In this document: positions 699-19,773 of the stretch, in pieces
Layout of the letters: each line of letters starts with the position of its first letter
Numbering within the stretch: position 1 is the first letter of the stretch
Origin: a virus
Strand: one strand, 5' to 3'
Length of the DNA stretch: 19,773 nt
Virus genome (UHGV): UHGV-0141098
Program-made: the position numbers and the translations under genes
The notes under the pieces: model-generated
What the model saw: the letters and a program-made list of their open reading frames with translations, nothing else
Database searches by the model: none
Told to the model about the DNA's origin: nothing

Positions 699-715
699 CA
701 ATTTATTAGAGCAAA
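699..715 (-). promoter_or_regulatory. C1-repressor-type operator (match to P1 consensus ATTGCTCTAATAAATTT)
   Basis: Minus strand reads TTTGCTCTAATAAATTG, 15/17 to the recalled P1 C1 operator consensus. Lies 3 nt after the pacB stop codon; contains a -35-like TTGCTC. Confidence 0.55.
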
Positions 716-4005: not shown

Positions 4006-4022
4006 CAATACATTAGAGCAAT
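4006..4022 (-). promoter_or_regulatory. C1-repressor-type operator upstream of lpa
   Basis: Minus strand reads ATTGCTCTAATGTATTG (core ATTGCTCTAAT exact). Followed by TTGCTA -35-like and TATTAT -10-like elements before the lpa Shine-Dalgarno. Begins 1 nt after the stop of the upstream 347-aa gene. Confidence 0.55.
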
Positions 4023-6056: not shown

Positions 6057-7615
6057 ATGAAAATGACAAGTATTCAACAACGTGCAGAGCTTCATCGTCA
6101 AATCTGGCAAATTGCTAACGATGTCAGGGGTTCGGTCGATGGATGGGATTTTAAGCAATACGTTCTGGGCGCACTTTTCTACCGTTTTATCAGCGAAAAT
6201 TTTTCCAGCTATATTGAAGCCGGTGATGACAGTATCTGTTATGCGAAACTGGATGACAGCGTAATTACTGATGACATTAAAGACGATGCCATCAAAACTA
6301 AAGGCTACTTCATCTACCCCAGTCAGCTTTTCTGCAACGTAGCGGCGAAAGCAAATACTAATGACAGACTGAATGCAGATTTAAACAGCATCTTCGTTGC
6401 TATCGAAAGTTCTGCTTACGGTTATCCTTCAGAAGCTGACATCAAAGGTTTGTTTGCTGATTTCGATACCACCAGTAACCGCCTGGGTAACACCGTTAAA
6501 GATAAAAATGCCCGCCTGGCTGCGGTTCTGAAAGGGGTTGAAGGGTTAAAACTTGGTGACTTCAACGAACATCAGATTGACCTGTTCGGTGATGCCTATG
6601 AGTTCCTGATTTCTAACTATGCGGCAAATGCCGGTAAGTCAGGCGGCGAGTTCTTTACACCGCAGCACGTCTCCAAGCTGATTGCACAACTGGCTATGCA
6701 CGGGCAGACCAGCGTTAACAAAATCTACGACCCGGCAGCGGGTTCCGGCTCACTGTTGTTGCAGGCGAAAAAACAGTTTGATAACCACATCATCGAAGAA
6801 GGCTTTTTCGGTCAGGAAATCAACCATACGACCTATAACCTGGCGCGTATGAACATGTTTTTGCACAATATCAACTACGACAAGTTTGATATCAAGCTGG
6901 GTAATACACTGACTGAGCCGCACTTCAGAGATGAAAAACCGTTTGACGCCATCGTATCTAACCCACCGTATTCGGTGAAATGGATTGGCAGCGATGACCC
7001 GACGCTGATTAACGATGAGCGTTTTGCCCCGGCTGGCGTTCTGGCCCCCAAATCCAAAGCTGACTTTGCGTTTGTACTACATGCGCTGAACTATCTTTCG
7101 GCCAAAGGTCGTGCTGCGATTGTCTGCTTCCCGGGTATTTTTTACCGTGGCGGCGCAGAGCAGAAAATCCGTCAGTATCTGGTCGATAATAACTATGTCG
7201 AAACCGTAATTTCACTGGCACCGAACCTGTTCTTTGGCACCACCATTGCAGTAAACATTCTGGTGCTGTCTAAGCATAAAACGGATACCAAAGTTCAGTT
7301 TATTGACGCCAGCGAACTGTTCAAAAAAGAGACTAACAACAATATCCTGACCGACGCCCATATCGAACAGATTATGCAGGTATTTGCCAGCAAGGAAGAT
7401 GTTGCTCATCTGGCGAAATCTGTCGCGTTTGAAGCCGTTGTAGCGAATGACTATAACCTGTCGGTGAGCAGCTATGTGGAAGCGAAAGATACTCGCGAAA
7501 TTATCGATATCGCTGAGTTGAATGCAGAGCTGAAAACCACGGTCAGCAAAATCGACCAGTTACGCCAAGACATTGATGCGATCGTGGCTAGAATTGAAGG
7601 CAGAGAGGTACAGGC

Positions 7616-7619
<4 letters not shown>
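6057..7619 (+). CDS. hsdM: Type I restriction-modification N6-adenine DNA methyltransferase subunit HsdM, 520 aa
   Basis: AdoMet-binding motif [10 protein letters not shown] and catalytic NPPY motif (SNPPYSVKW). N-terminus [17 protein letters not shown] matches EcoR124-family HsdM as recalled. Stop overlaps the hsdS start (ATGA). Confidence 0.95.
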
Positions 7620-8836
<1,217 letters not shown>

Positions 8837-8957
8837 TTGACCATTGCTACCGATCGGGCCACCTTAACACCCGGTCAGTATATAGACTATTTTTTACGCG
8901 CCGGAAGTCACTCTTAACGCCCTTCCGGCTCTTGCCAGGCGGCACAAAGGATGCGCT

Positions 8958-11900
8958 ATGACTCATCAAACACACACCATTGCTGAATCCAATAACTATA
9001 TCGTCCTTGATAAGTACATCAAAGCTAAGCAAACAAGCGACAGCTACCAGAGCGAATCGGACCTGGAACGTGAACTGATTCAGGACCTGCGGAATCAGGG
9101 TTATGAATTTATTTCCGTAAAATCACAGTCGGCAATGCTGTCCAATGTTCGGGAACAGCTTCAGAACCTCAATGGTGTGGTGTTTAATGACAGCGAGTGG
9201 CGGCGTTTCACGGAGCAGTATCTGGATAACCCGAGCGATGGCATTCTGGATAAGACCCGTAAAATCCATATCGACTATATTTGCGACTTTATTTTTGATG
9301 ACGAGCGTCTTGAGAACATCTATTTGATAGATAAAAAGAATCTCATGCGCAATAAGGTGCAGATTATCCAGCAGTTTGAACAGGCGGGTTCTCACGCTAA
9401 CCGTTATGACGTAACTATCCTGGTTAATGGCTTACCGCTGGTGCAAATCGAACTGAAAAAACGCGGCGTGGCGATTCGTGAGGCTTTCAACCAGATACAT
9501 CGTTACAGTAAAGAGAGTTTTAACAGCGAAAATTCCCTGTTTAAGTATCTGCAGCTGTTCGTCATTTCCAACGGCACTGATACCCGTTATTTTGCCAACA
9601 CGACAAAGCGCGATAAAAACAGTTTTGACTTCACCATGAATTGGGCGAAATCAGACAACACGCTGATTAAAGACCTCAAAGACTTTACCGCTACCTTTTT
9701 CCAGAAACATACTCTGCTGAATGTTCTGGTGAACTACAGCGTTTTTGACAGTAGTCAGACGCTACTGGTGATGCGACCGTACCAGATTGCCGCCACCGAG
9801 CGCATTCTGTGGAAAATTAAGAGTTCCTTTACAGCGAAGAACTGGTCAAAACCGGAAAGCGGTGGGTATATCTGGCACACTACCGGTTCTGGTAAAACCC
9901 TCACCAGCTTTAAAGCCGCGCGTCTGGCAACAGAGCTGGACTTTATTGATAAAGTCTTCTTTGTGGTCGACAGGAAAGACCTCGATTACCAGACCATGAA
10001 GGAATATCAGCGTTTTTCGCCAGACAGCGTCAACGGCTCGGAAAATACCGCAGGCCTTAAACGAAATCTGGATAAGGACGATAACAAAATTATCGTCACT
10101 ACTATTCAGAAACTCAATAACCTGATGAAAGCAGAAAGCGATCTGCCTGTATATAATCAGCAAGTGGTGTTTATATTTGATGAATGCCACCGCAGCCAGT
10201 TTGGAGAAGCGCAGAAAAACCTGAAGAAGAAATTCAAACGCTATTATCAGTTTGGTTTTACCGGCACCCCTATTTTCCCGGAAAACGCCTTAGGCTCAGA
10301 AACAACCGCCAGCGTATTTGGTCGTGAATTGCATTCGTATGTAATTACCGATGCGATTCGTGACGAAAAAGTGCTCAAATTCAAGGTGGACTACAACGAT
10401 GTGCGGCCACAGTTTAAGTCTTTAGAGACAGAAACTGACGAGAAAAAACTGAGTGCGGCTGAAAATCAGCAGGCGTTTCTTCATCCCATGCGTATTCAGG
10501 AAATCACGCAATATATTCTGAATAATTTCCGCCAGAAAACCCACCGTACCTTCCCTGGCTCAAAAGGTTTTAATGCTATGTTGGCAGTGAGCAGCGTGGA
10601 TGCCGCGAAAGCCTATTATGCGACGTTTAAACGGTTACAAGAAGAAGCCGCTAATAAATCGGCTACCTATAAACCGCTGCGTATTGCGACAATCTTCTCC
10701 TTTGCCGCCAATGAAGAACAAAATGCCATTGGTGAAATTTCCGATGAAACTTTTGATACCAGCGCAATGGACAGCAGTGCTAAAGAGTTTCTGGATGCTG
10801 CAATTCGTGAGTATAACAGCTATTTTAAAACTAACTTCAGCACCGACAGTAACGGTTTTCAGAACTACTATCGTGATTTAGCCCAACGGGTTAAAAATCA
10901 GGATATCGATCTGTTAATTGTCGTGGGAATGTTTTTAACCGGCTTCGATGCTCCAACATTAAACACGCTATTCGTCGATAAAAACTTGCGTTTTCACGGC
11001 CTGATGCAGGCATTTTCCCGCACCAACCGCATTTATGACGCTACTAAAACCTTCGGTAATATTGTCACGTTCCGGGATCTGGAACGCTCAACCATTGATG
11101 CCATAACGCTGTTTGGTGACAAAAATACCAAAAATGTGGTTTTAGAAAAGAGTTATGCAGAGTATATGGAAGGCTTTACTGATGCTGCCACTGGTGAAGC
11201 TAAACGCGGCTTCATGACAGTAGTTTCAGAACTGGAACAACGGTTCCCTGACCCTACCAGTATTGAAAGTGAAAAAGAGAAGAAAGACTTCGTTAAACTG
11301 TTTGGCGAATACCTGCGTGCCGAGAACATCCTGCAAAACTATGATGAATTTGCCACGCTAAAAGCCCTGCAACAAATCGATCTTAGCGATCCTGTTGCGG
11401 TAGAAAAATTCAAAGCAGAACATTATGTGGATGATGAAAAGTTCGCTGAATTGCAAACAATTCGTCTCCCTGCTGATCGCAAGATTCAGGATTATCGTTC
11501 TGCCTATAACGATATTCGCGACTGGCAGCGCCGTGAGAAAGAAGCTGAGAAAAAAGAGAAATCAACCACTGACTGGGATGACGTGGTTTTTGAGGTCGAT
11601 TTGCTGAAGTCTCAGGAAATAAACCTGGATTATATCCTTGGACTGATTTTCGAACACAACAGACAAAATAAAGGCAAGGGCGAAATGATCGAAGAGGTCA
11701 AACGCTTAATTCGTTCAAGCCTGGGGAACCGGGCGAAAGAGGGCCTGGTGGTCGATTTTATTCAGCAAACGAACCTGGATGATTTACCAGACAAAGCCAG
11801 TATCATTGAGGCATTCTTTACGTTTGCTCAACGCGAACAGCAACGTGAAGCAGAAGCATTGATAAAAGAAGAAAATCTCAATGAAGATGCAGCAAAACGC

Positions 11901-12074
11901 TATATTCGCACGTCTTTAAAACGCGAATACGCCACCGAAAATGGCACAGAATTAAACGAAACATTACCAAAACTTAGTCCGTTGAATCCGCAATATAAAA
12001 CGAAAAAACAGGCAGTTTTCCAGAAAATCGTCTCGTTTATTGAGAAGTTTAAAGGCGTAGGCGGAAAAATATAG
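8958..12074 (+). CDS. hsdR: Type I restriction endonuclease/translocase subunit HsdR, 1038 aa (EcoR124I-like)
   Basis: PD-(D/E)xK nuclease residues D151, E165, K167 ([20 protein letters not shown]). SF2 helicase motifs [12 protein letters not shown] and TGTP. Length of 1038 aa and N-terminus [14 protein letters not shown] match EcoR124I HsdR as recalled. Confidence 0.95.
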
Positions 12075-12324: not shown

Positions 12325-12341
12325 AGATTTATTAGAGCAAT
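12325..12341 (-). promoter_or_regulatory. C1-repressor-type operator with overlapping promoter-like elements
   Basis: Minus strand reads ATTGCTCTAATAAATCT (16/17 to consensus). Its first base is the last base of the upstream gene's stop codon. -35-like TTGCTC, a 17-nt spacer, then TAAAAC. Confidence 0.6.
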
Positions 12342-12920: not shown

Positions 12921-13815
12921 TCAGCGAACGTAAATAGTGCCGCCGTTCTCTTTTTCCCATGCATCGCTACGTGCATAGCAAACATCGAGAAGTCTTCTTG
13001 CCGCAGTTTCCTCTAAACCCAATTCGACAACCAACTGCTCATGACGGCGGGTAACCACATCAAACAGGGTATGCAGCCCTTTAGTTGCCAGATCATCAAT
13101 GAATTCCGGTTCGAACGGCAGCTCTGCATCTGCCAACATAACCTCTTGCGCCCACTCAACTCGACGGACCAATTCCGGGCGGCGGCTTTCCATCTCTTTA
13201 CAGATCAATTCATGGAAGAACTCTACCCAACCTTCCGGCTGGAACTCGCGGAAAATTGCCAACGGCTGGAAGTTTGGCATCAACCATTCGTTGATTCGGA
13301 TATCAATGGCATAGCCCATGTCGCAGCAGAACTGATAAGCAAAGTCCAGCTTAGAAACGATATAAGGACGCTCGTTATTGAACTCTTTAGGCGATGAGAT
13401 CCCATAAGCCAGGAGGCGCGGGAAGAAGGAGATTTGCCCTAACGTCGGATGAAGTTTGCTTGCAGGGAAACGGCGCTCAGTAATGCCATACATTTCCTTC
13501 TTGAGCGTCGCAAATTTGGCATTCTCATTAACCAGCGCGGTAACCTCTGCTTTTTTATTAGCAAATGCCACGCGCGCTTCGCTTGCATCTTTAATAGTTT
13601 TTTTGAGCTGTTGGTTAAGGTCAGCGACCTGCTTACGCAGTTCCTGTCGCTCGCTTTTAGCTTTGTTATAGCGTTTCTCAAGGTTAAAAGGATCAAGTTT
13701 CATGATCTCTTTATATTGAGATTTTAGCGTTGAAATCTGTGAGTTCCGCAGTTCAACCATCGCGGTCATTTCATTGAGTTTTGTTTCCAGCTCAATGCTT
13801 ATACGTTCGGCATTA
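12921..13815 (-). pseudogene. 3' portion (about 295 codons) of a ~420-aa coiled-coil protein gene interrupted by IS1
   Basis: The track ORF 12921..13829 begins with a TTG inside the IS1 left inverted repeat. Its reading frame is continuous with the ORF 14584..14959 once IS1 and one copy of the 8-bp duplication are removed. Confidence 0.7.
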
Positions 13816-13870
13816 GGTAATGGTGCCAACTTACTGATTTAGTGTATGATGGTGTTTTTGAGGTGCTCCA

Positions 13871-14146
13871 GTGGCTTCTGTTTCTATCAGCTGTCCCTCC
13901 TGTTCAGCTACTGAAGGCGTGGTGCGTAACGGTAAAAGTACTGCCGGACATCAGCGCTATCTCTGCTCTCACTGCCGTAAAACATGGCAGCTACAGTTCA
14001 CTTACACCGCTTCTCAACCCGGTACGCATCAGAAAATCATTGATATGGCCATGAATGGCGTCGGATGTCGCGCCAGTGCACGCATTATGGGCGTTGGCCT
14101 CAACACGGTTTTACGTCACTTAAAAAACTCAGGCCGCAGTCGGTAA
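13871..14146 (+). CDS. insA: IS1 InsA (transposition inhibitor; N-terminal part of InsAB' transposase), 91 aa
   Basis: Protein [51 protein letters not shown]... matches IS1 InsA as recalled. Confidence 0.9.
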
Positions 14147-14568
14147 CCTCGCGCATACAACCGGGCAGTGATGTGATTGTCTGCGCTGAAATGGACGAAC
14201 AGTGGGGCTACGTCGGTGCTAAATCACGCCAGCGCTGGTTGTTTTACGCGTATGACAGGATACGGAGGACGGTTGTGGCGCACGTATTCGGTGAACGCAC
14301 GCTGGCCACGCTGGAGCGTCTTCCGGGCCTGCTGTCGGCCTTTGAGGTCGTGGTATGGATGACGGATGGCTGGCCGCTTTATGAATCACGCCTGAAGGGA
14401 GAACTGCACGTTATCAGCAAGCGATATACGCAGCGCATTGAGCGGCATAACCTGAATCTGAGGCAGCATCTGGCAAGGCTGGGCAGGAAGTCACTGTCGT
14501 TCTCAAAATCGGTGGAGCTGCATGACAAAGTCATCGGGCATTATCTGAACATAAAACACTATCAGTAA
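14065..14568 (+). CDS. insB: IS1 insB reading frame (expressed as InsAB' by -1 frameshift at the A6C motif)
   Basis: Frame encodes ...[26 protein letters not shown]...[15 protein letters not shown]...KHYQ, typical of IS1 InsB. The slippery motif AAAAAAC is intact at 14122-14128. Confidence 0.85.
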
Positions 14569-14583
14569 GTTGGAGTCATTACC

Positions 14584-14959
14584 CGGCATTATCAGCACGC
14601 TGGTTGGCGTCATGCGTCGCATCGTCGATCGCGTCCTGTTGCTGGCGTTTCAAATGTTCAATTTGCAGCTGAAGCTCTTCAATTTCTTTACCCTTCAGAC
14701 CGAGATCCAACTGCATATTTTCAGCTGCATCTACCAGGGAGTTATGGCTATCAGCTTCTGCGTTATAAACATCAATAAGCTGTGCGTGAAGCATCTCCGC
14801 TGACTGAACCGCATTATCAAAAAAACGTGCTGTGAGGTCATCACAACTAACGCGGCGTTGCGCGGCCCGGATGTTCTGGATAATGGCCGGGATACCGGCA
14901 TTCAGGACATCAGGGATAGATACATTTTCGATTGATTGGTTTTGTGCTGAAGTGCTCAT
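14584..14959 (-). pseudogene. 5' portion (125 codons) of the IS1-interrupted ~420-aa coiled-coil protein gene
   Basis: The track ORF 14579..14959 ends at a stop supplied by IS1 sequence. Its frame joins the 12921..13815 portion across the target duplication (...RADNA | ERISIELE...). Confidence 0.7.
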
Positions 14960-14960
14960 T

Positions 14961-15179
14961 TCAAAGTTCCGTATTAGCTTGTGCTTCGGTCATTTTTCCT
15001 AAGTATGAAGGTGGAAGGACTACGCAATTTGTATCCAGTCCCTCACCTATGGCAGCCTGTAAAATTCTGGCTAAGGTGAGTCTCTTGTTGCGATACCTGG
15101 TGATGACATGCCTGATACCGCCGGTCAGCGTAACAAAGGCGATCAGCCAGTAGTGATATTTCCGTCGGAATGGCCACAT
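14961..15179 (-). CDS. hypothetical protein, 72 aa, first gene of the IS1-interrupted operon
   Basis: AGGTG Shine-Dalgarno 4 nt before the ATG. One hydrophobic segment (YWLIAFVTLTGGI). Stop is 1 nt from the start of the downstream interrupted gene. Confidence 0.45.
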   Translation of the reverse strand: MWPFRRKYHYWLIAFVTLTGGIRHVITRYRNKRLTLARILQAAIGEGLDTNCVVLPPSYLGKMTEAQANTEL

Positions 15180-15193
15180 AGTGCACCTTATAG

Positions 15194-15210
15194 ATTGCTC
15201 TAATAAAAAA
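15194..15210 (+). promoter_or_regulatory. C1-repressor-type operator, plus orientation
   Basis: ATTGCTCTAATAAAAAA, 14/17 to consensus. Its A-tail runs directly into the hairpin at 15211-15231. Confidence 0.55.
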
Positions 15211-15240
15211 CGTGATGAGTGTACATCACGTTTTAAAAAT
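15205..15240. terminator. bidirectional Rho-independent terminator hairpin between the two operators
   Basis: Stem CGTGATG/CATCACG (7 bp, extendable by the flanking A/T runs) with a 7-nt loop. A-run on one side and T-run on the other, so a U-tract follows on either strand. Confidence 0.6.
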
Positions 15241-15242
15241 AT

Positions 15243-15259
15243 GGAATTATTAGAGCAAT
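15243..15259 (-). promoter_or_regulatory. C1-repressor-type operator, minus orientation
   Basis: Minus strand reads ATTGCTCTAATAATTCC (14/17, core exact). Begins 1 nt after the stop of the 233-aa gene. Followed by the same ATTTTTAAAAC element seen after the operator at 12325. Confidence 0.55.
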
Positions 15260-15260
15260 A

Positions 15261-15962
15261 TTATTCTGATTCTCGCTCAAAAAATGAGCTGATAAGGGGA
15301 AGCCAATCCTCTGACACTTCGCGAGGTCGCGGTTTGCCGTGGAAAAAGATTATTCGGCAGTCTTTTGGTAATGCCCCATTCCCCCTGGAGTAACGCGCGC
15401 TCGCATATTTCGAACCAGGTTCCACAACATCGGCCTTGTAACTTACAAACCATCCCGGATACAGATCCTGAAATGCTGGTGTATCATCACCCATAACCTT
15501 CCGCAAAAACCCCTGCTCACCCCAGCATTCAGTAGTAACACAACGAGCAATCCAACCTTCCGGATCTTGCCAGAATGCACTCCAGATATGCACTTTTACA
15601 CTATTTGGTATCCACAGGGCACCGCTGCCACGATATTGTGGATGGTAAAAATCCCTAAGCATGGTGAAGCTGGTTGGTGGATTCTCTAGGATTGGGCGTA
15701 TATCACCGGCAATAACCGTGTCCAAATCCAGATAGAACAGATCATCGGTTATATCCGGTCGGAACAACTCGATTTTCGCCCACCAGCCACGGCACTTTTG
15801 CCACTGGTTGATCAATGGGACAACTTTGACGCCAGGTACATGTAAACGCTTCAGGTCTGTCAGGCAAATAATTTCATAGCCTTTTGGCAGTTGATTAACC
15901 AGCCACTGCACATCGGAAGCGTTATAGTCACCACCAGAGCGAAGAACTAAAGCAATCTTCAT
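15261..15962 (-). CDS. hypothetical protein, 233 aa, with a DxD-like motif (possible nucleotide-sugar transferase)
   Basis: Segment [12 protein letters not shown] suggests a DxD-type metal/nucleotide-binding site. Start overlaps the phosphatase stop (ATGA). Functional call is tentative. Confidence 0.5.
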
Positions 15963-16651
15963 GCTGCACCATCACCTTTCACTTTCATCAATGTCAGGTT
16001 TCCGCAAAATACGGCACCTGTGTCGATATAATGCTGATTCCAGAATGTCTTCGGGCTTTTCACCGGAGTGTGACCAAAGATAAAACGATCTGCGCCCGAA
16101 ATTTCGCCACCAATATCATCCATCGAATCACTGATACGCTCGCGCGCCCAGACAACGTTGAAAAGCGGCACCTCCTTACCGAATTGGTATTCATTATCCG
16201 GATAGTCGGCATGGGCTATAACGATAGTTTCTTGCCCGGTGTTCAACTCAATGATATAGGGCAGACGCTTTACCAGCTCCACCAGCGCCCAGGCTAATAT
16301 TTCCTGATCAGTGTCCAGCATGAAGAACCATTGTCCGCCATTCATTAGCCAGTTATTCACGTTGCCATCTGGACTTAACGCATCAATCATCAGCCGCTCA
16401 TGGTTCCCCATCACTGCCCTGAACCAGGGCATCTGCAATAGTTCCAGACATTCGACATTTTCAGTACCGCGATCGATAAGGTCGCCGAACGATATCAGTA
16501 AATCCTGCGCCGGGTCAAAATCCACACGATGGAGTTCGGACATCAGTCTGGTGTAGCAACCATGCAGATCACCAACAACCCAGACATTCCTGTATTTGGT
16601 ACCGTCGATACGGTGATAAATTGTGGGTGCCATCATGTATTCTTCAGCCAT
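15959..16651 (-). CDS. PPP-family Ser/Thr protein phosphatase (lambda-PPase / PrpA-like), 230 aa
   Basis: Three diagnostic metallophosphatase motifs: GDLHG, GDLIDRG and GNHE. Could correspond to P1 ppp, but that is not verified. Confidence 0.85.
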
Positions 16652-17259
16652 TCTTTAAGAGTCATCTGCGGAATACCTCCCATTTTCCCGCATGAAACAA
16701 CGTCAATCTGTTCACGCGCAGACTGGAATAACAAAGGCAGGTGACTTAGATTTTTTGGCGTGCCGCCGGAGTGAACGCGTGGTTCTTGTGTAGCGTCAAC
16801 GCCCACCAGGGCGACATGTTTGAATCCGATATGGAAAGCCAGGTTCAGAGCACCATATGCACTATTGCCGCTGGCAATTTCATTCTCATCTTCGCAAAGG
16901 CCGAAATGTGCGGACCAGCGCCACGCCCACCACTCGGGAGAATTCGTATTTTTTGGCTCCGTGCCGCGCTCAGCCACACGACGGAAGCACAGAACGCCAT
17001 CTCTGACTTCACGTTCTTTAACATCGGGTAGTGCCATGCAATAACAAACACCACGGCGACGGCGGCCACGACCAACGCGCCGCATATTGTCTGGCGATGG
17101 ATCAAGGGTGAAAAAATAAGAAGCGCGGTTAAGCCAGTCGATGGCCCCATTGACCGCTATAATCGGCACTCCGCGCGGCGCAACAAAGTTTGCGGCGCTT
17201 GGGCCACTGCCGACGATAATAACGCGATCACTGCCTCTAAATTTATTCTTGGGAAACAT
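16633..17259 (-). CDS. Rossmann-like protein with GSGPS motif (MptE/DUF115-like), paralog B, 208 aa
   Basis: Motifs [24 protein letters not shown] and VALVGVD are shared with the upstream paralog. The family assignment is from recalled motif resemblance only. Confidence 0.55.
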
Positions 17260-17819
17260 TGAATTGCACTGCTCCTACTTGCATTCAAAATATGTAAATC
17301 TGCGTGTTTTTTGCGGGTATCCAGGAACTGCTGTTGCCATTTTGAAATAGACACCTGCGTTGGATTCCGTAGGGCTTGAGGGTGCGCGCCATGCCAATGA
17401 AGGCCGTTTTGCAGAGAACAGTCATAGCCGACTAATACCACTACTTCAGCCCCTGATTCAGCAGCCAGACTGATAGCCTGCGCGCCGCTATTTACCCCTT
17501 CCGCCGGTCCACAATATCGCCTGTACTCCAACGAAAATGATTTCGCCGCCGCCAGGTTGGCTGTCACTTTGCGGAATCTCCCTCCCGGTATGGTGGATCC
17601 GTATTGCTTCCACCATGACAAATCACCGGCGTATAAGGCATAAATGTCATCGAACATCTGCCAGGAATTGTTAACCGCGATGATTGAACAGCCAGTTTTT
17701 TCTATAGCAGCACAGTCCTCACGAGTGAGTGACGGACCGCTACCGACACAAAAAACAGTCCTAGTCGCCCTGGGTGGTATGTTCATTCTCAGCTGCAAAT
17801 TCAGCCTCCAGGCGAGCAT
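17157..17819 (-). CDS. Rossmann-like protein with GSGPS motif (MptE/DUF115-like), paralog A, 220 aa
   Basis: Motifs VFCVGSGPS, IIAVNNSW, NSGAQAISLA and VVLVGYD. Its last ~34 codons overlap the start of paralog B in another frame. Confidence 0.55.
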   Translation of the reverse strand: MLAWRLNLQLRMNIPPRATRTVFCVGSGPSLTREDCAAIEKTGCSIIAVNNSWQMFDDIYALYAGDLSWWKQYGSTIPGGRFRKVTANLAAAKSFSLEYRRYCGPAEGVNSGAQAISLAAESGAEVVVLVGYDCSLQNGLHWHGAHPQALRNPTQVSISKWQQQFLDTRKKHADLHILNASRSSAIQCFPRINLEAVIALLSSAVAQAPQTLLRRAECRL

Positions 17820-17982
17820 TCATTTCAGCGATTACCGGGTCCACTACAGCATCTGCTTCCTGTTCATTACGCGGCATGATCGATGCCAGCGATTCATAAT
17901 TAGCCTTGAATGACACGATTATTCTCCCGATGTTAATGTGCGCTATATCAAAGAGCACATATGCACTAATTAATTTATTATT

Positions 17983-18228
17983 TTAAGCAGCATACAACCA
18001 CTTGTCGCCGTTCAATACATGCTCAATAGCCTCACCCTTTTTAAGGCTTATGTATTCCAGGATGGCGGTTATCGCTTGTTCTGCACCATACGCAAGAACG
18101 ACGTAGTAACCTTCCTCTCTAAGCCTGCGCATCCAGGCGATCTGCTCTTTCGTCGGGGCTTTACCATTTGGTTCTTTAAGCTCAATTCGCATGCCGTGAT
18201 AAATACCGCATGCTTTATCGAGACTCAT
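17983..18228 (-). CDS. VRR-NUC-like small nuclease-fold protein, 81 aa
   Basis: Segment D..(11)..IELKEPNGKAPTKEQIAWMRRLREEGYYV resembles the VRR-NUC D...ExK core. Its ATG overlaps the stop of the truncated IS110-family ORF. Confidence 0.45.
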   Translation of the reverse strand: MSLDKACGIYHGMRIELKEPNGKAPTKEQIAWMRRLREEGYYVVLAYGAEQAITAILEYISLKKGEAIEHVLNGDKWLYAA

Positions 18229-18893
18229 GTCCGGACATCCAGATCAGCGATTTCGTCATGTAACTCGAGATAGCGTCGGGCAAGGGACTTTAATGAAATG
18301 CGATAAACGTTGGTTACATTGCGGTATTCACTGGCATCAGGTCTCCAGGAACCCAGGGTCCTGATGAGCTGCATGCGCGTCATATTTCTGAGCTGTTCAC
18401 GTAATTCATCCGGGGCAGAGATAATATTTGAATGGATAATCTGGAGAGCGACTCTGCGGGCTGATATTGCTGTTTTTCGGCAAGTTTTTAATACCCGCAG
18501 GGACTCAATCATGCCATCACGCGTTTTGGGAGTAACTGTCCTGATGCCTGAGAATGCTGCATGAGCGGCACATTCAGCATCAATTGTGTCACTTTTACCC
18601 CGTTTGCGTCGCTCCATCCGGTCTGGAGCAGTCACCTCAAGAACTTCTAACCCGGCGTTCTGAAAATAACGAAGCAAACCGGAACCATAGGTACCTGTGC
18701 ACTCAACACCAATTCGCTTTAATGTCCCAAACGAGGTCATCCATGCCAGCATCTGCCGGTAACCTTGTCGTGTTGTGGAGAAATACTGAGTCCCAAGGAC
18801 TTTATTGTTCTGATCTACGACAGCGGCAACGTGCAAATCTTTATGTGTATCCACGCCACCCACAACGGCAGCTTTGGTAACTTTATCAACCAT
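18225..18893 (-). pseudogene. IS110-family transposase, N-terminal DEDD domain plus linker only (222 aa, C-terminal domain missing)
   Basis: N-terminal pattern VGGVDTHKDLHVA ... ECTGTYGSGL ... KSDTIDAECAAHAA matches the IS110/IS1111 DEDD domain. The ORF stops before the expected C-terminal domain. Confidence 0.65.
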
Positions 18894-19111
18894 GACAGAG
18901 CTCCTGTGAGGAAACAGAGTTGAAACTCCAGACAGATAACCCGGACAGGACAGTAACGAGACAAGCCGTCAGGCCCTTCTTGAGTCACGCGCATCGGTGA
19001 GGAGATGCCTCGCATGAAGGCGCTTCCGGCAACCGACGGGTCCAGGGCAGGACACAAAAGGTCGATCGCTGTGTGAGTCAGGATGCGGGAAGGTCTTCAC
19101 TGCATCAGTAA

Positions 19112-19773
19112 TCACACCAATCTGGTTAAACGGCAAACTAAGTGGTGGTAAAGACTGACATCGGCATTATTACTATCGCTGTGGAACATCACCCCGACGG
19201 GCTTACCACGGGTTTCCCATGCCATTTCCAGTGCTTTCATGGTAAGCCTGCTGTCCGGCGAGAACGACATGGCCCAGCCCACTGGTTTTCTTGCGAACAG
19301 GTCGAGAACAACGGCGAGGTACGCCCAGCGCTTACCCGTCCAGATATAGGTCACATCACCGCACCACACCTGATTTGGCTCGGTCACGGCGAACTGCCGT
19401 TCAAGGTAGTTAGGGATAGCAACATGTTCATGACCACCACGTTTATACCGGTGAGTCGGCTGCTGACAGCTGACCAGCCCCAGCTCTTTCATGAGCCTGC
19501 CAGCAAGCCAGCGTCCCATCTGGTAGCCTCTCCGGGTTGCCATTGTGGCAATGCTTCTTCCTCCGGCCGAACCGTGGCTGATGCCATGTAGCTCAAGTAC
19601 CTGACTGCGTAATACAGCCCGTCTGCCGTCTGGTTTTTCAAGACGGTTTTTCCAGTATCTGTAGCTGCTGCGATGAACCCCGAACACATGGCAGAGTGTG
19701 GCCACAGGATAATGCGCTCTGAGTTTCCCGATTATCGAGAACTGTTCAGGGAGTCTGACATCAAGAGCGCGGT
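19112..19773 (-). mobile_element. IS3-family element fragment (OrfB-like transposase N-terminal two-thirds, 19112..19705; runs off the window)
   Basis: Integrase-core pattern [34 protein letters not shown] ... HSD matches IS3-family OrfB. The ORF ends about 20 aa after the second catalytic Asp, before the expected Glu, so it is truncated. Confidence 0.6.

Follow-up and report, generated by a model that had tools for sequence, protein, structure and literature searches.

A C1-repressed phage P1 operon carrying a putative glycosylation cassette and an apparently independent lambda-type phosphatase

The window analysed here is the virus genome sequence UHGV-0141098, 19,773 nt in length. Four open reading frames of 220, 208, 230 and 233 amino acids lie on its minus strand at 17157..17819, 16633..17259, 15959..16651 and 15261..15962. 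They had been described in a first-pass annotation, and the overlaps of 103, 19 and 4 nt given there follow from the ORF coordinates. The four genes were identified as pmgO, pmgP, ppp and pmgQ of phage P1, with 98.4% nucleotide identity over the block. Their counterparts in P7 are hdmB, hdmC, ppp and hdmD. The transcription unit has a fifth gene at its start which had been left out earlier. This small first gene, pmgN (hdmA in P7), lies at 17761..17958 on the minus strand and overlaps pmgO by 59 nt. It was called from its ORF, a match to PHROG 2350 at 3.3e-45 and the P1/P7 annotation, where P1 has a shorter form ending at 17916. Among the loci compared pmgN was restricted to those that are P1-like.

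Control elements annotated in P1 were placed in the window using a locus-to-window offset of +10583, fixed via the coordinates of pmgO and pmgQ. Oppp (formerly Op83), the C1 repressor operator governing the operon, lies at 17960..17976 on the plus strand (P1 annotation L001:7377-7393). The window and P1 are identical here over TAAAATAATAAATTAATTAGTGCAT. The predicted sigma-70 promoter PpmgN lies within the pmgM remnant at 17989..18015 on the minus strand (AF234172 annotation L001:7406-7432), in a stretch near-identical to P1. The downstream boundary at 15194..15259 contains OpmgRa/OpmgRb (Op86a/b) and the PpmgR region, where the next operon (pmgR-pmgS) starts. Sequences resembling C1 operators lie at 15194-15210 (+) and 15243-15259 (-), just where P1 has them annotated. 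The window shares its gene order, overlaps, C1 operator and promoter with P1 and P7, and pmgN-pmgO-pmgP-ppp-pmgQ is a C1-repressed early operon of phage P1. The flanks of the window differ from P1 in being disrupted. An IS110-like element cuts pmgM, so read-through from the late promoter LPpmgL is lost in the window, and pmgS is split by IS1.

These genes have carried the label "putative morphogenetic function" in the P1 genome record since its deposition. All four P1 genes are non-essential and dispensable for plaque formation according to knockouts (PMC9024508) and CRISPRi. Plaquing and anti-restriction were unimpaired in the knockouts, and glycosylation is nowhere mentioned in the text of the P1 virion proteome study (PMC9024508). 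It had been considered that the four might prove to be conserved P1 core genes with known roles. They are conserved and named P1 genes, for which no role is known.

PmgO and PmgP had been proposed as paralogues on the basis of shared motifs, and these motifs can be read straight off the translations. PmgO contains GSGPS (26-30), IAVNN (47-51), NSG (110-112) and LVGYD (129-133), while PmgP contains GSGPS (17-21), IAVNG (34-38), NSAYGA (132-137) and LVGVD (151-155). Pairwise BLASTP of the two proteins was marginal (E 0.003). Comparison of their family profiles with hhalign gave a probability of 98.05% and an E-value of 1.4e-13 over 163 columns, establishing them as true remote paralogues that share both fold and motif order. 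PmgP itself matched PHROG 2111 at 3.8e-132. The pmgO/pmgP overlap was conserved in the Citrobacter, P1-like and Microbulbifer loci. Counted from the first base of P's (G/A)SGPS motif, the O stop codon in these loci comes 45-81 nt further downstream, and in every case P is read in frame +2 with respect to O. Both paralogues lose the nucleotide-binding loop in the 166-aa and 178-aa forms that are commonly deposited.

The suggestion of an MptE/DUF115-like nucleotide-binding fold for both proteins was supported. This fold is common to Maf, MptE, thiamine pyrophosphokinase and GT42. The closest solved structure for PmgO was the Maf flagellin glycosyltransferase, with the MptE and thiamine pyrophosphokinase folds ranked just slightly below. 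Against the Pfam MptE-like family PF01973 PmgO scored 23.4 bits and PmgP 20.9 bits, below the gathering cut-off of 34.6. Some homologues scored above it, including the fusion protein P0051 at 44.6 bits, and several have a precomputed PF01973 match. A single-sequence PDB search with P0051 found nothing, and no NCBIfam match was obtained for PmgO, PmgP or PmgQ. A joint O+P profile matched the GT42 enzyme Cst-II at E 7e-5 over Cst-II residues 5-163, with the GxGPS, Asn, SG and GxD donor-site motifs all aligned in order. The alignment ends before the catalytic-base region of Cst-II, the base being presumably His188. An HWHGxH motif is invariant in PmgO (141-146) and absent from PmgP. Residues D66, S111 and D133 of PmgO and D53, S133 and D155 of PmgP are invariant. 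The Ser-Asp spacing is 22, compared to 23 in CbMaf (catalytic residues D272, S334 and D357, Asp/Glu, Ser and Asp in Maf enzymes), a putative equivalence that comes from spacing and not from alignment.

Both proteins differ in architecture from the enzymes that they resemble. At about 200-220 aa, PmgO and PmgP correspond to the catalytic core only of Maf (Maf_flag10/DUF115, PDB 5mu5), a roughly 630-aa enzyme whose N- and C-terminal domains they both lack. PmgO covered 164 of the 632 Maf residues, and the O+P profile aligned with just the N-terminal loop of 5mu5. There is no flagellin partner at the P1 cassette. Compared to Cst-I and Cst-II of Campylobacter jejuni the two proteins lack the lid domain.

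The fourth gene had been noted as a DxD protein and possible transferase, which was borne out and made more precise. PmgQ is classed as a GT8-like, putatively retaining GT-A glycosyltransferase. It contains DxD (D79-L80-D81), GDQ (148-150) and HG (208-209) motifs, of which D79-L80-D81 is invariant and G148-D149-Q150 and H208-G209 are nearly invariant in the family. Each of the three lines up with its counterpart in glycogenin and in the Skp1 alpha-galactosyltransferase (Skp1 GalT). The GT-A fold of PmgQ superposes on solved GT8 enzymes, and the best matches (Skp1 GalT, glycogenin and GlyE) are enzymes of protein-linked glycans. Identity to GT8 enzymes (glycogenin, LgtC, GlyE and Skp1 GalT) is just 13-16%. 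No Pfam model, Glyco_transf_8 included, matched PmgQ at E <= 0.1. The only route giving a sequence link was the PmgQ family profile against PDB GT8 chains (E 1.9e-7).

The third gene had been called a complete PPP-family phosphatase, and both its motifs and a full-length match agree with this. Ppp contains GDLHG (27-31), GDLIDRG (56-62) and GNHE (82-85), so that every metal-binding motif is present. It scored 57 bits against Pfam Metallophos (4.6e-15; cut-off 21.5) and aligned over its full length with the lambda phosphatase NinI (1G5B; E 1.3e-93, residues 11-229 against 3-221). The gene is annotated here as a lambda-type Mn-dependent Ser/Thr protein phosphatase. The lambda gene sits in the nin region, a region which is dispensable, whereas ppp lies in the pmgP-pmgQ junction.

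The O-P-Q cassette is common to thousands of phages of Gram-negative bacteria, and the named hosts seen were all diderm. The PmgO family comprises about 7,600 cluster representatives. O, P and Q were co-located in Citrobacter, Pseudescherichia, Zhongshania, Commensalibacter, Brevundimonas and Sinomicrobium loci. A viral-contig scan anchored on P1 gave just near-identical P1-like contigs and was re-anchored on distant members. Among the viral loci anchored on Q, 41 of 80 also had O. In the viral sample with O as its anchor, O mostly stood without a recognisable P or Q, so the trio is one of several arrangements, a point against the glycosylation-cassette reading. The pmgP-pmgQ slot is often filled by a methyltransferase in other lineages, and fusions of Q with a SAM methyltransferase or with a TylF sugar O-methyltransferase were seen. 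Other neighbours of the cassette were a sulfotransferase, APS kinase, GT2 and epimerase/RmlD/GDP-mannose dehydratase genes. In Zhongshania the group [O, P, MTase, Q] follows the portal, protease and major head protein genes, in that order, and precedes the adaptor gene. In phage D3 orf7 directly follows the capsid gene. A major head, adaptor or head-closure gene was found within two genes in 44 of the 101 loci having at least two genes on either side. A position within a late operon is also typical of morons. Capsid or neck adjacency and glycan-tailoring genes, present in many relatives, are absent in P1 itself, where the neighbours of pmgO-pmgQ are pmgM and pmgR/pmgS. The lack of an adjacent capsid gene counts against a virion target.

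Two annotations in these neighbourhoods were set aside. The frequent neighbour unk260 (D3 orf12, PAJU2 ORF011) was considered as a GT9 heptosyltransferase from its GxGDxLY N-terminus. This was unconfirmed, the PDB profile search giving noise and Pfam GT9 matching one of seven members at E 0.17. The PAJU2 ORF010 and Eowyn homologues are labelled "structural protein"; no proteomic source for these labels could be found and they were not counted as evidence, that of Eowyn being apparently carried over by homology.

We tentatively read the operon as a phage cassette for glycosylation, whose target is probably a virion protein, together with an independent phosphatase, and give this reading somewhat less than an even chance. 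The identities of the genes, their paralogy, the folds, the retained motifs, the linkage and the neighbourhoods are direct results of the analysis, and we infer catalytic activity, donors and acceptor. The C1 repressor holds the operon silent in the lysogen, and lytic growth turns it on. PmgO and PmgP, small paralogues of the MptE/DUF115 fold that retain GT42/Maf donor-binding motifs, would be transferases. GT42 sialyltransferases and Maf flagellin glycosyltransferases use CMP-activated ulosonic acids. To our knowledge E. coli K-12 makes no CMP-Neu5Ac, and the donor of PmgO and PmgP must therefore differ from that of Cst-I and Cst-II. In E. coli K-12 the CMP donor would most likely be CMP-Kdo, the sole CMP-ulosonic acid of that host. 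Maf enzymes can move Kdo from CMP-Kdo to Ser/Thr in E. coli (bioRxiv 10.1101/2020.06.03.131540). PmgQ would act as a retaining hexosyltransferase using a UDP-sugar, with Mn2+ held by the DxD and His motifs. The three enzymes may jointly build a short glycan on an acceptor, most likely a head or neck virion protein. That P1 and thousands of Gram-negative phages O-glycosylate their own head or neck proteins by way of a CMP-Kdo-using Maf/GT42-like pair and a GT8 hexosyltransferase is a further proposal, which we consider unlikely. The D3 capsid cryo-EM structure paper mentions neither glycans or glycan density nor orf7. The paper on E. coli phage JEP7 found no glycoprotein staining in ten phages. 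This result is uninformative here since it is not known whether any of the ten carries the cassette.

A serious rival is that the cassette modifies a host glycan, particularly LPS, during infection. The target would be the LPS core, O-antigen or capsule, and we regard this as possible but on the unlikely side. Masking of the LPS-core receptor of P1 could keep progeny from being lost to debris and already infected cells; exclusion of other phages is another possible effect. The fold evidence fits envelope modification equally, as the closest relatives include the GT42 enzymes Cst-I and Cst-II and the GT8 enzyme LgtC, which are classic lipo-oligosaccharide enzymes. The best structural match of PmgO is nevertheless the protein glycosyltransferase Maf and not a lipo-oligosaccharide enzyme, the best matches of PmgQ likewise act on protein-linked glycans, and the cassette lies repeatedly between capsid and adaptor genes. 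Classical lysogenic conversion by the P1 cassette was rejected because the operon lies behind a C1 operator and is repressed in lysogens. A further alternative is that PmgO and PmgP are not glycosyltransferases but pyrophosphokinases of the MptE or thiamine pyrophosphokinase kind, in an operon that would activate and modify a small molecule or DNA base. Maf and GT42 scored higher in all comparisons, PmgO and PmgP are partnered by a GT8 glycosyltransferase and by sugar-tailoring enzymes, and the cassette has no pterin, thiamine or base-hydroxymethylation genes beside it. We also know of no hypermodification of P1 DNA beyond methylation. This alternative was judged highly improbable.

The first-pass annotation had placed all four genes in a single pathway, in which Ppp might, for example, dephosphorylate a sugar-phosphate or phosphoprotein intermediate. 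Tight translational coupling in P1-like elements through the 19-nt and 4-nt overlaps, the single C1-controlled operon and retention of the four-gene arrangement in a 73%-identical Pantoea element (L087) speak for it. Against this, the O-P-Q group occurs without Ppp outside P1-like elements. A Ppp relative lay next to O/P/Q in none of 21 non-P1 genome loci and none of 160 viral loci. In phage D6 ppp is present among nin-type genes without O, P or Q, the lambda orthologue is itself a nin-region product, and a methyltransferase occupies the same slot elsewhere. The single pathway was not supported by these comparisons and we give it very little chance. Judged by this distribution Ppp is an independent passenger unrelated to the cassette, and would have entered the variable pmgP-pmgQ slot in the P1 lineage as a lambda-phosphatase orthologue. 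The earlier statement that the combination fits no described defence system holds. PADLOC-DB models gave no meaningful match to the five operon proteins, the sole match being JAB at E 0.023.

P1 is among the phages most heavily used in genetics, and placing pmgO-pmgP-pmgQ in a very large cassette family replaces a vague label by a hypothesis that can be tested. Glycosylation of virions would have consequences for the immunogenicity, stability and host interactions of phages, which matter for P1-based delivery vectors. With LPS as the target, a new receptor-masking function would result. The existing P1 knockout library makes both outcomes directly testable. Should virion glycosylation from CMP-Kdo prove true, Gram-negative phages would have their first known system of this kind, and Ser/Thr-O-Kdo would be a natural modification of proteins. 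Mycobacteriophage capsid glycosylation offers a precedent (PMC11256854). In the actinobacteriophages Che8 and relatives, phage glycosyltransferases and methyltransferases are tied to capsid-protein glycans (PMC11256854, PMC13313380). The P1 cassette differs from these in its enzyme families (a Maf/GT42-like pair and a GT8 enzyme) and its Gram-negative hosts, and its glycosylating role is putative. Like the actinobacteriophage cassettes, relatives of the P1 cassette lie beside capsid genes together with methyltransferases.

Four minus strand ORFs at 17157..17819, 16633..17259, 15959..16651 and 15261..15962 were confirmed as described in the first-pass annotation. Neighbouring genes overlap by 103, 19 and 4 nt, and all of the motifs listed there were readable in the translations. 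An additional small ORF (17761..17958), absent from that annotation, shares 59 nt with the beginning of the first gene and is part of the same transcription unit. The block 14584..18235 was 98.4% identical to phage P1 and comparably close to P7, RCS47, SJ46 and other P1-like phage-plasmids. The P1 depositors named the five genes pmgN, pmgO, pmgP, ppp and pmgQ, while the P7 names are hdmA, hdmB, hdmC, ppp and hdmD. The P1 annotation places the C1 repressor operator Oppp (Op83) and a predicted promoter, PpmgN, ahead of them, with a late promoter (LPpmgL) further upstream before pmgL. The operator and promoter stretch is identical in the window and P1. Five C1 operator-like sites with at most three mismatches to ATTGCTCTAATAAATTT were found in the window (699-715, 4006-4022, 12325-12341, 15194-15210 and 15243-15259) compared to 0.12 expected by chance, in a scan for which the annotated Oppp is too divergent to be detected. 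The last two (15194-15259) match P1 Op86b/a, the operators of the next operon directly past pmgQ.

These are conserved, named P1 genes without a known role, since no function was assigned to pmgO, pmgP, ppp or pmgQ in the literature searched. All four were non-essential in a genome-wide CRISPRi study which cites agreeing knockouts (PMC10695390). In a P1 knockout study neither plaquing nor anti-restriction was affected in 24 of 29 single-gene deletions, and the only new virion proteins were PmgC and PmgG (PMC9024508). The genes were already known as sequences and fold-level labels already exist in PHROGs. The pmgM note of the P1 record AF234172 contains the misspelling "norphogenetic". Databases name PmgO and PmgP homologues of many genera "norphogenetic protein", a label which spread from that note.

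Pairwise BLASTP linked PmgO to PmgP only marginally, across 36 residues at E 0.003. When the two family alignments (32 PmgO-like and 33 PmgP-like proteins) were compared profile to profile, they matched over 163 columns (98% probability, E 1.4e-13), bearing out the proposal that the first two genes are paralogues. Both families share the same motif order: a Gly-rich GSGPS loop, an Asn past the second strand, an invariant Asp (D66 in PmgO, D53 in PmgP), NSG/NS, and an (L/V)GxD strand with its Asp at D133 in PmgO and D155 in PmgP. An invariant HWHGxH motif is present in PmgO and absent from PmgP. The joint profile reached the GT42 sialyltransferase Cst-II by sequence (E 7e-5, four motifs aligned), the flagellin glycosyltransferase Maf at 0.003 and the pyrophosphokinase MptE at 0.011. 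The MptE/DUF115-like fold named in the first-pass annotation is correct. The family is large; counted for PmgO alone, 7,582 cluster representatives pass E ≤ 0.001 and 3,770 pass E ≤ 1e-10. Widely deposited forms of PmgO and PmgP are truncated (window 16633-17819; proteins P0003 and P0054; plasmid NZ_CP060066). The 166-aa PmgO form begins at Met55 and the 178-aa PmgP form at MPIIAVNG, and therefore both lack the invariant GSGPS nucleotide-binding loop. This is probably because gene callers avoid long overlaps. The pmgO/pmgP overlap is obligatory in several lineages.

The third gene encodes a PPP-family phosphatase, as first annotated. All signature motifs are present, and the alignment to lambda protein phosphatase spans the whole protein (1G5B, E 1.3e-93). 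A locus survey was anchored on PmgP in a collection with one genome per species. Relatives of PmgO, PmgP and PmgQ were co-located in many non-P1 loci of Gamma- and Alphaproteobacteria and in one Bacteroidota genome, and a Ppp relative was found only in the three P1-like elements. Ppp relatives were also absent from all 160 further viral loci taken by anchoring on distant PmgO or PmgQ members. PmgQ-anchored viral loci contained PmgO in 41 of 80 cases and PmgP in 9 of 80. Recognisable PmgP or PmgQ was mostly absent beside PmgO in the PmgO-anchored set. The conserved unit is therefore PmgO and PmgQ, with PmgP as a frequent second paralogue. In D6, a divergent P1 relative, ppp is located among lambdoid nin-type genes with none of the other three nearby. 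The P-Q slot holds a methyltransferase in Zhongshania and Brevundimonas; in Sinomicrobium the methyltransferase comes after P. Ppp is an independent gene filling the P-Q junction in the P1 lineage. A single pathway of all four genes, as the first-pass annotation had suggested, is contradicted by this linkage. Of that annotation the observation stands and the interpretation is supported in part. In a Citrobacter rodentium lambdoid prophage (L003) the order is O, P, Q, between lysis genes and terminase. A 213-aa gene (L003:8796-9437) assigned to PHROG 1924 ("minor tail protein"), with no Pfam match, lies directly past them and before the small terminase gene.

The closest structural match of PmgO was a protein glycosyltransferase and those of PmgQ were protein-linked-glycan enzymes. 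Gene fusions and neighbours both point to a putative role in glycan synthesis. One contig encodes PmgQ joined to a SAM methyltransferase and to a segment with weak GT9 resemblance; on another the fusion partner is a TylF-type sugar O-methyltransferase. Neighbours include sulfotransferase, APS kinase, GT2 and epimerase/RmlD/GDP-mannose dehydratase genes. pmgO, pmgP and pmgQ are predicted, with good probability, to form a glycosylation cassette beside an independent phosphatase. The host here is not known to make a sialic-acid-type sugar. Maf enzymes in E. coli transfer Kdo from host CMP-Kdo onto Ser/Thr of the substrate (bioRxiv 10.1101/2020.06.03.131540), a donor that would be available to a Maf-like enzyme in such a host. 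All named hosts of the homologues encountered were Gram-negative, which fits CMP-Kdo as donor without proving it. The glycosylation reading is directly testable with existing P1 mutants.

The genomic position of the cassette points to the phage head. The Zhongshania locus runs portal, protease, major head protein, O, P, methyltransferase, Q, head-tail adaptor, neck and major tail. The O homologue of Pseudomonas phage D3, orf7, directly follows the capsid gene. The largest clusters of flanking genes were head-tail adaptors, head-closure proteins and major head proteins, and one of these was at most two genes away in 44 of the 101 loci with enough flanking sequence. Morons that had inserted into late operons would show such an association too. 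In mycobacteriophages, enzymes of the phage are described as glycosylating the capsid (PMC11256854, PMC13313380). P1 itself gave no positive sign of virion glycosylation, and glycans go unmentioned in the paper on the D3 capsid structure. A virion protein is a tentative candidate for the acceptor, and the combined statement of cassette, independent phosphatase and virion-protein acceptor is put at slightly below an even chance. A second arrangement of O, a gene of ~270 aa and a divergent P-like gene (about 205-225 aa) was found in D3 (L269, 5097-5555 and 6894-8289), PAJU2 (L270, 3974-5917) and the Klebsiella jumbo phage Eowyn (L272, 4998-7083). The ~270-aa product has a GxGDxLY N-terminus and a weak GT9 signal only. 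No supporting data were traceable for the "structural protein" labels on PAJU2 ORF010 and its Eowyn homologue. On viral contigs, distant PmgO-like genes are often immediately preceded by a gene whose product combines collagen triple-helix repeats with a CBM5/12-like module (L112:488-1297 and 16 related loci); this product may be a fibre or may accept the glycan.

Modification of the host envelope during infection is a serious alternative, because GT8 (LgtC) and GT42 (Cst-I/II) are the classic enzyme pair decorating lipo-oligosaccharide, and the LPS core is where P1 adsorbs. However, the operon is repressed by C1 in the lysogen, head genes adjoin the cassette, and the best matches of PmgO and PmgQ act on proteins or protein-linked glycans. 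Less probable are a pyrophosphokinase function and a target that is DNA or a small molecule; MptE is among the matches of the joint profile, but the glycosyltransferase branch came out ahead of the kinase branch in all comparisons, by a margin that is not wide. Three points appear to be new within the literature that could be searched: that an O-(P)-Q cassette is widespread, that it is associated with head genes and sugar-tailoring enzymes, and that the phosphatase is separate from it.

The window is part of a P1-like E. coli plasmid rich in IS elements. An IS110-like transposase gene (18225-18893) cuts pmgM at about 18235 and is followed by an IS3-family orfB (19112-19705). Only the C-terminal 81 codons of pmgM (VRR-NUC-like) are left in this region (17983-19705), and the insertion separates the operon from the upstream late promoter LPpmgL of P1. 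An IS1 insertion (insA/insB, 13871-14568) splits pmgS (12921-14959) into a C-terminal part (12921-13829) and the N-terminal 126 codons (14579-14959). A type I restriction-modification system at 6057-12074, comprising hsdM (6057-7619), hsdS (7616-8836) and hsdR (8958-12074), is located between phd/doc and pap, where P1 instead has humD, lxr, hot, upfM-O and pmgT-V.
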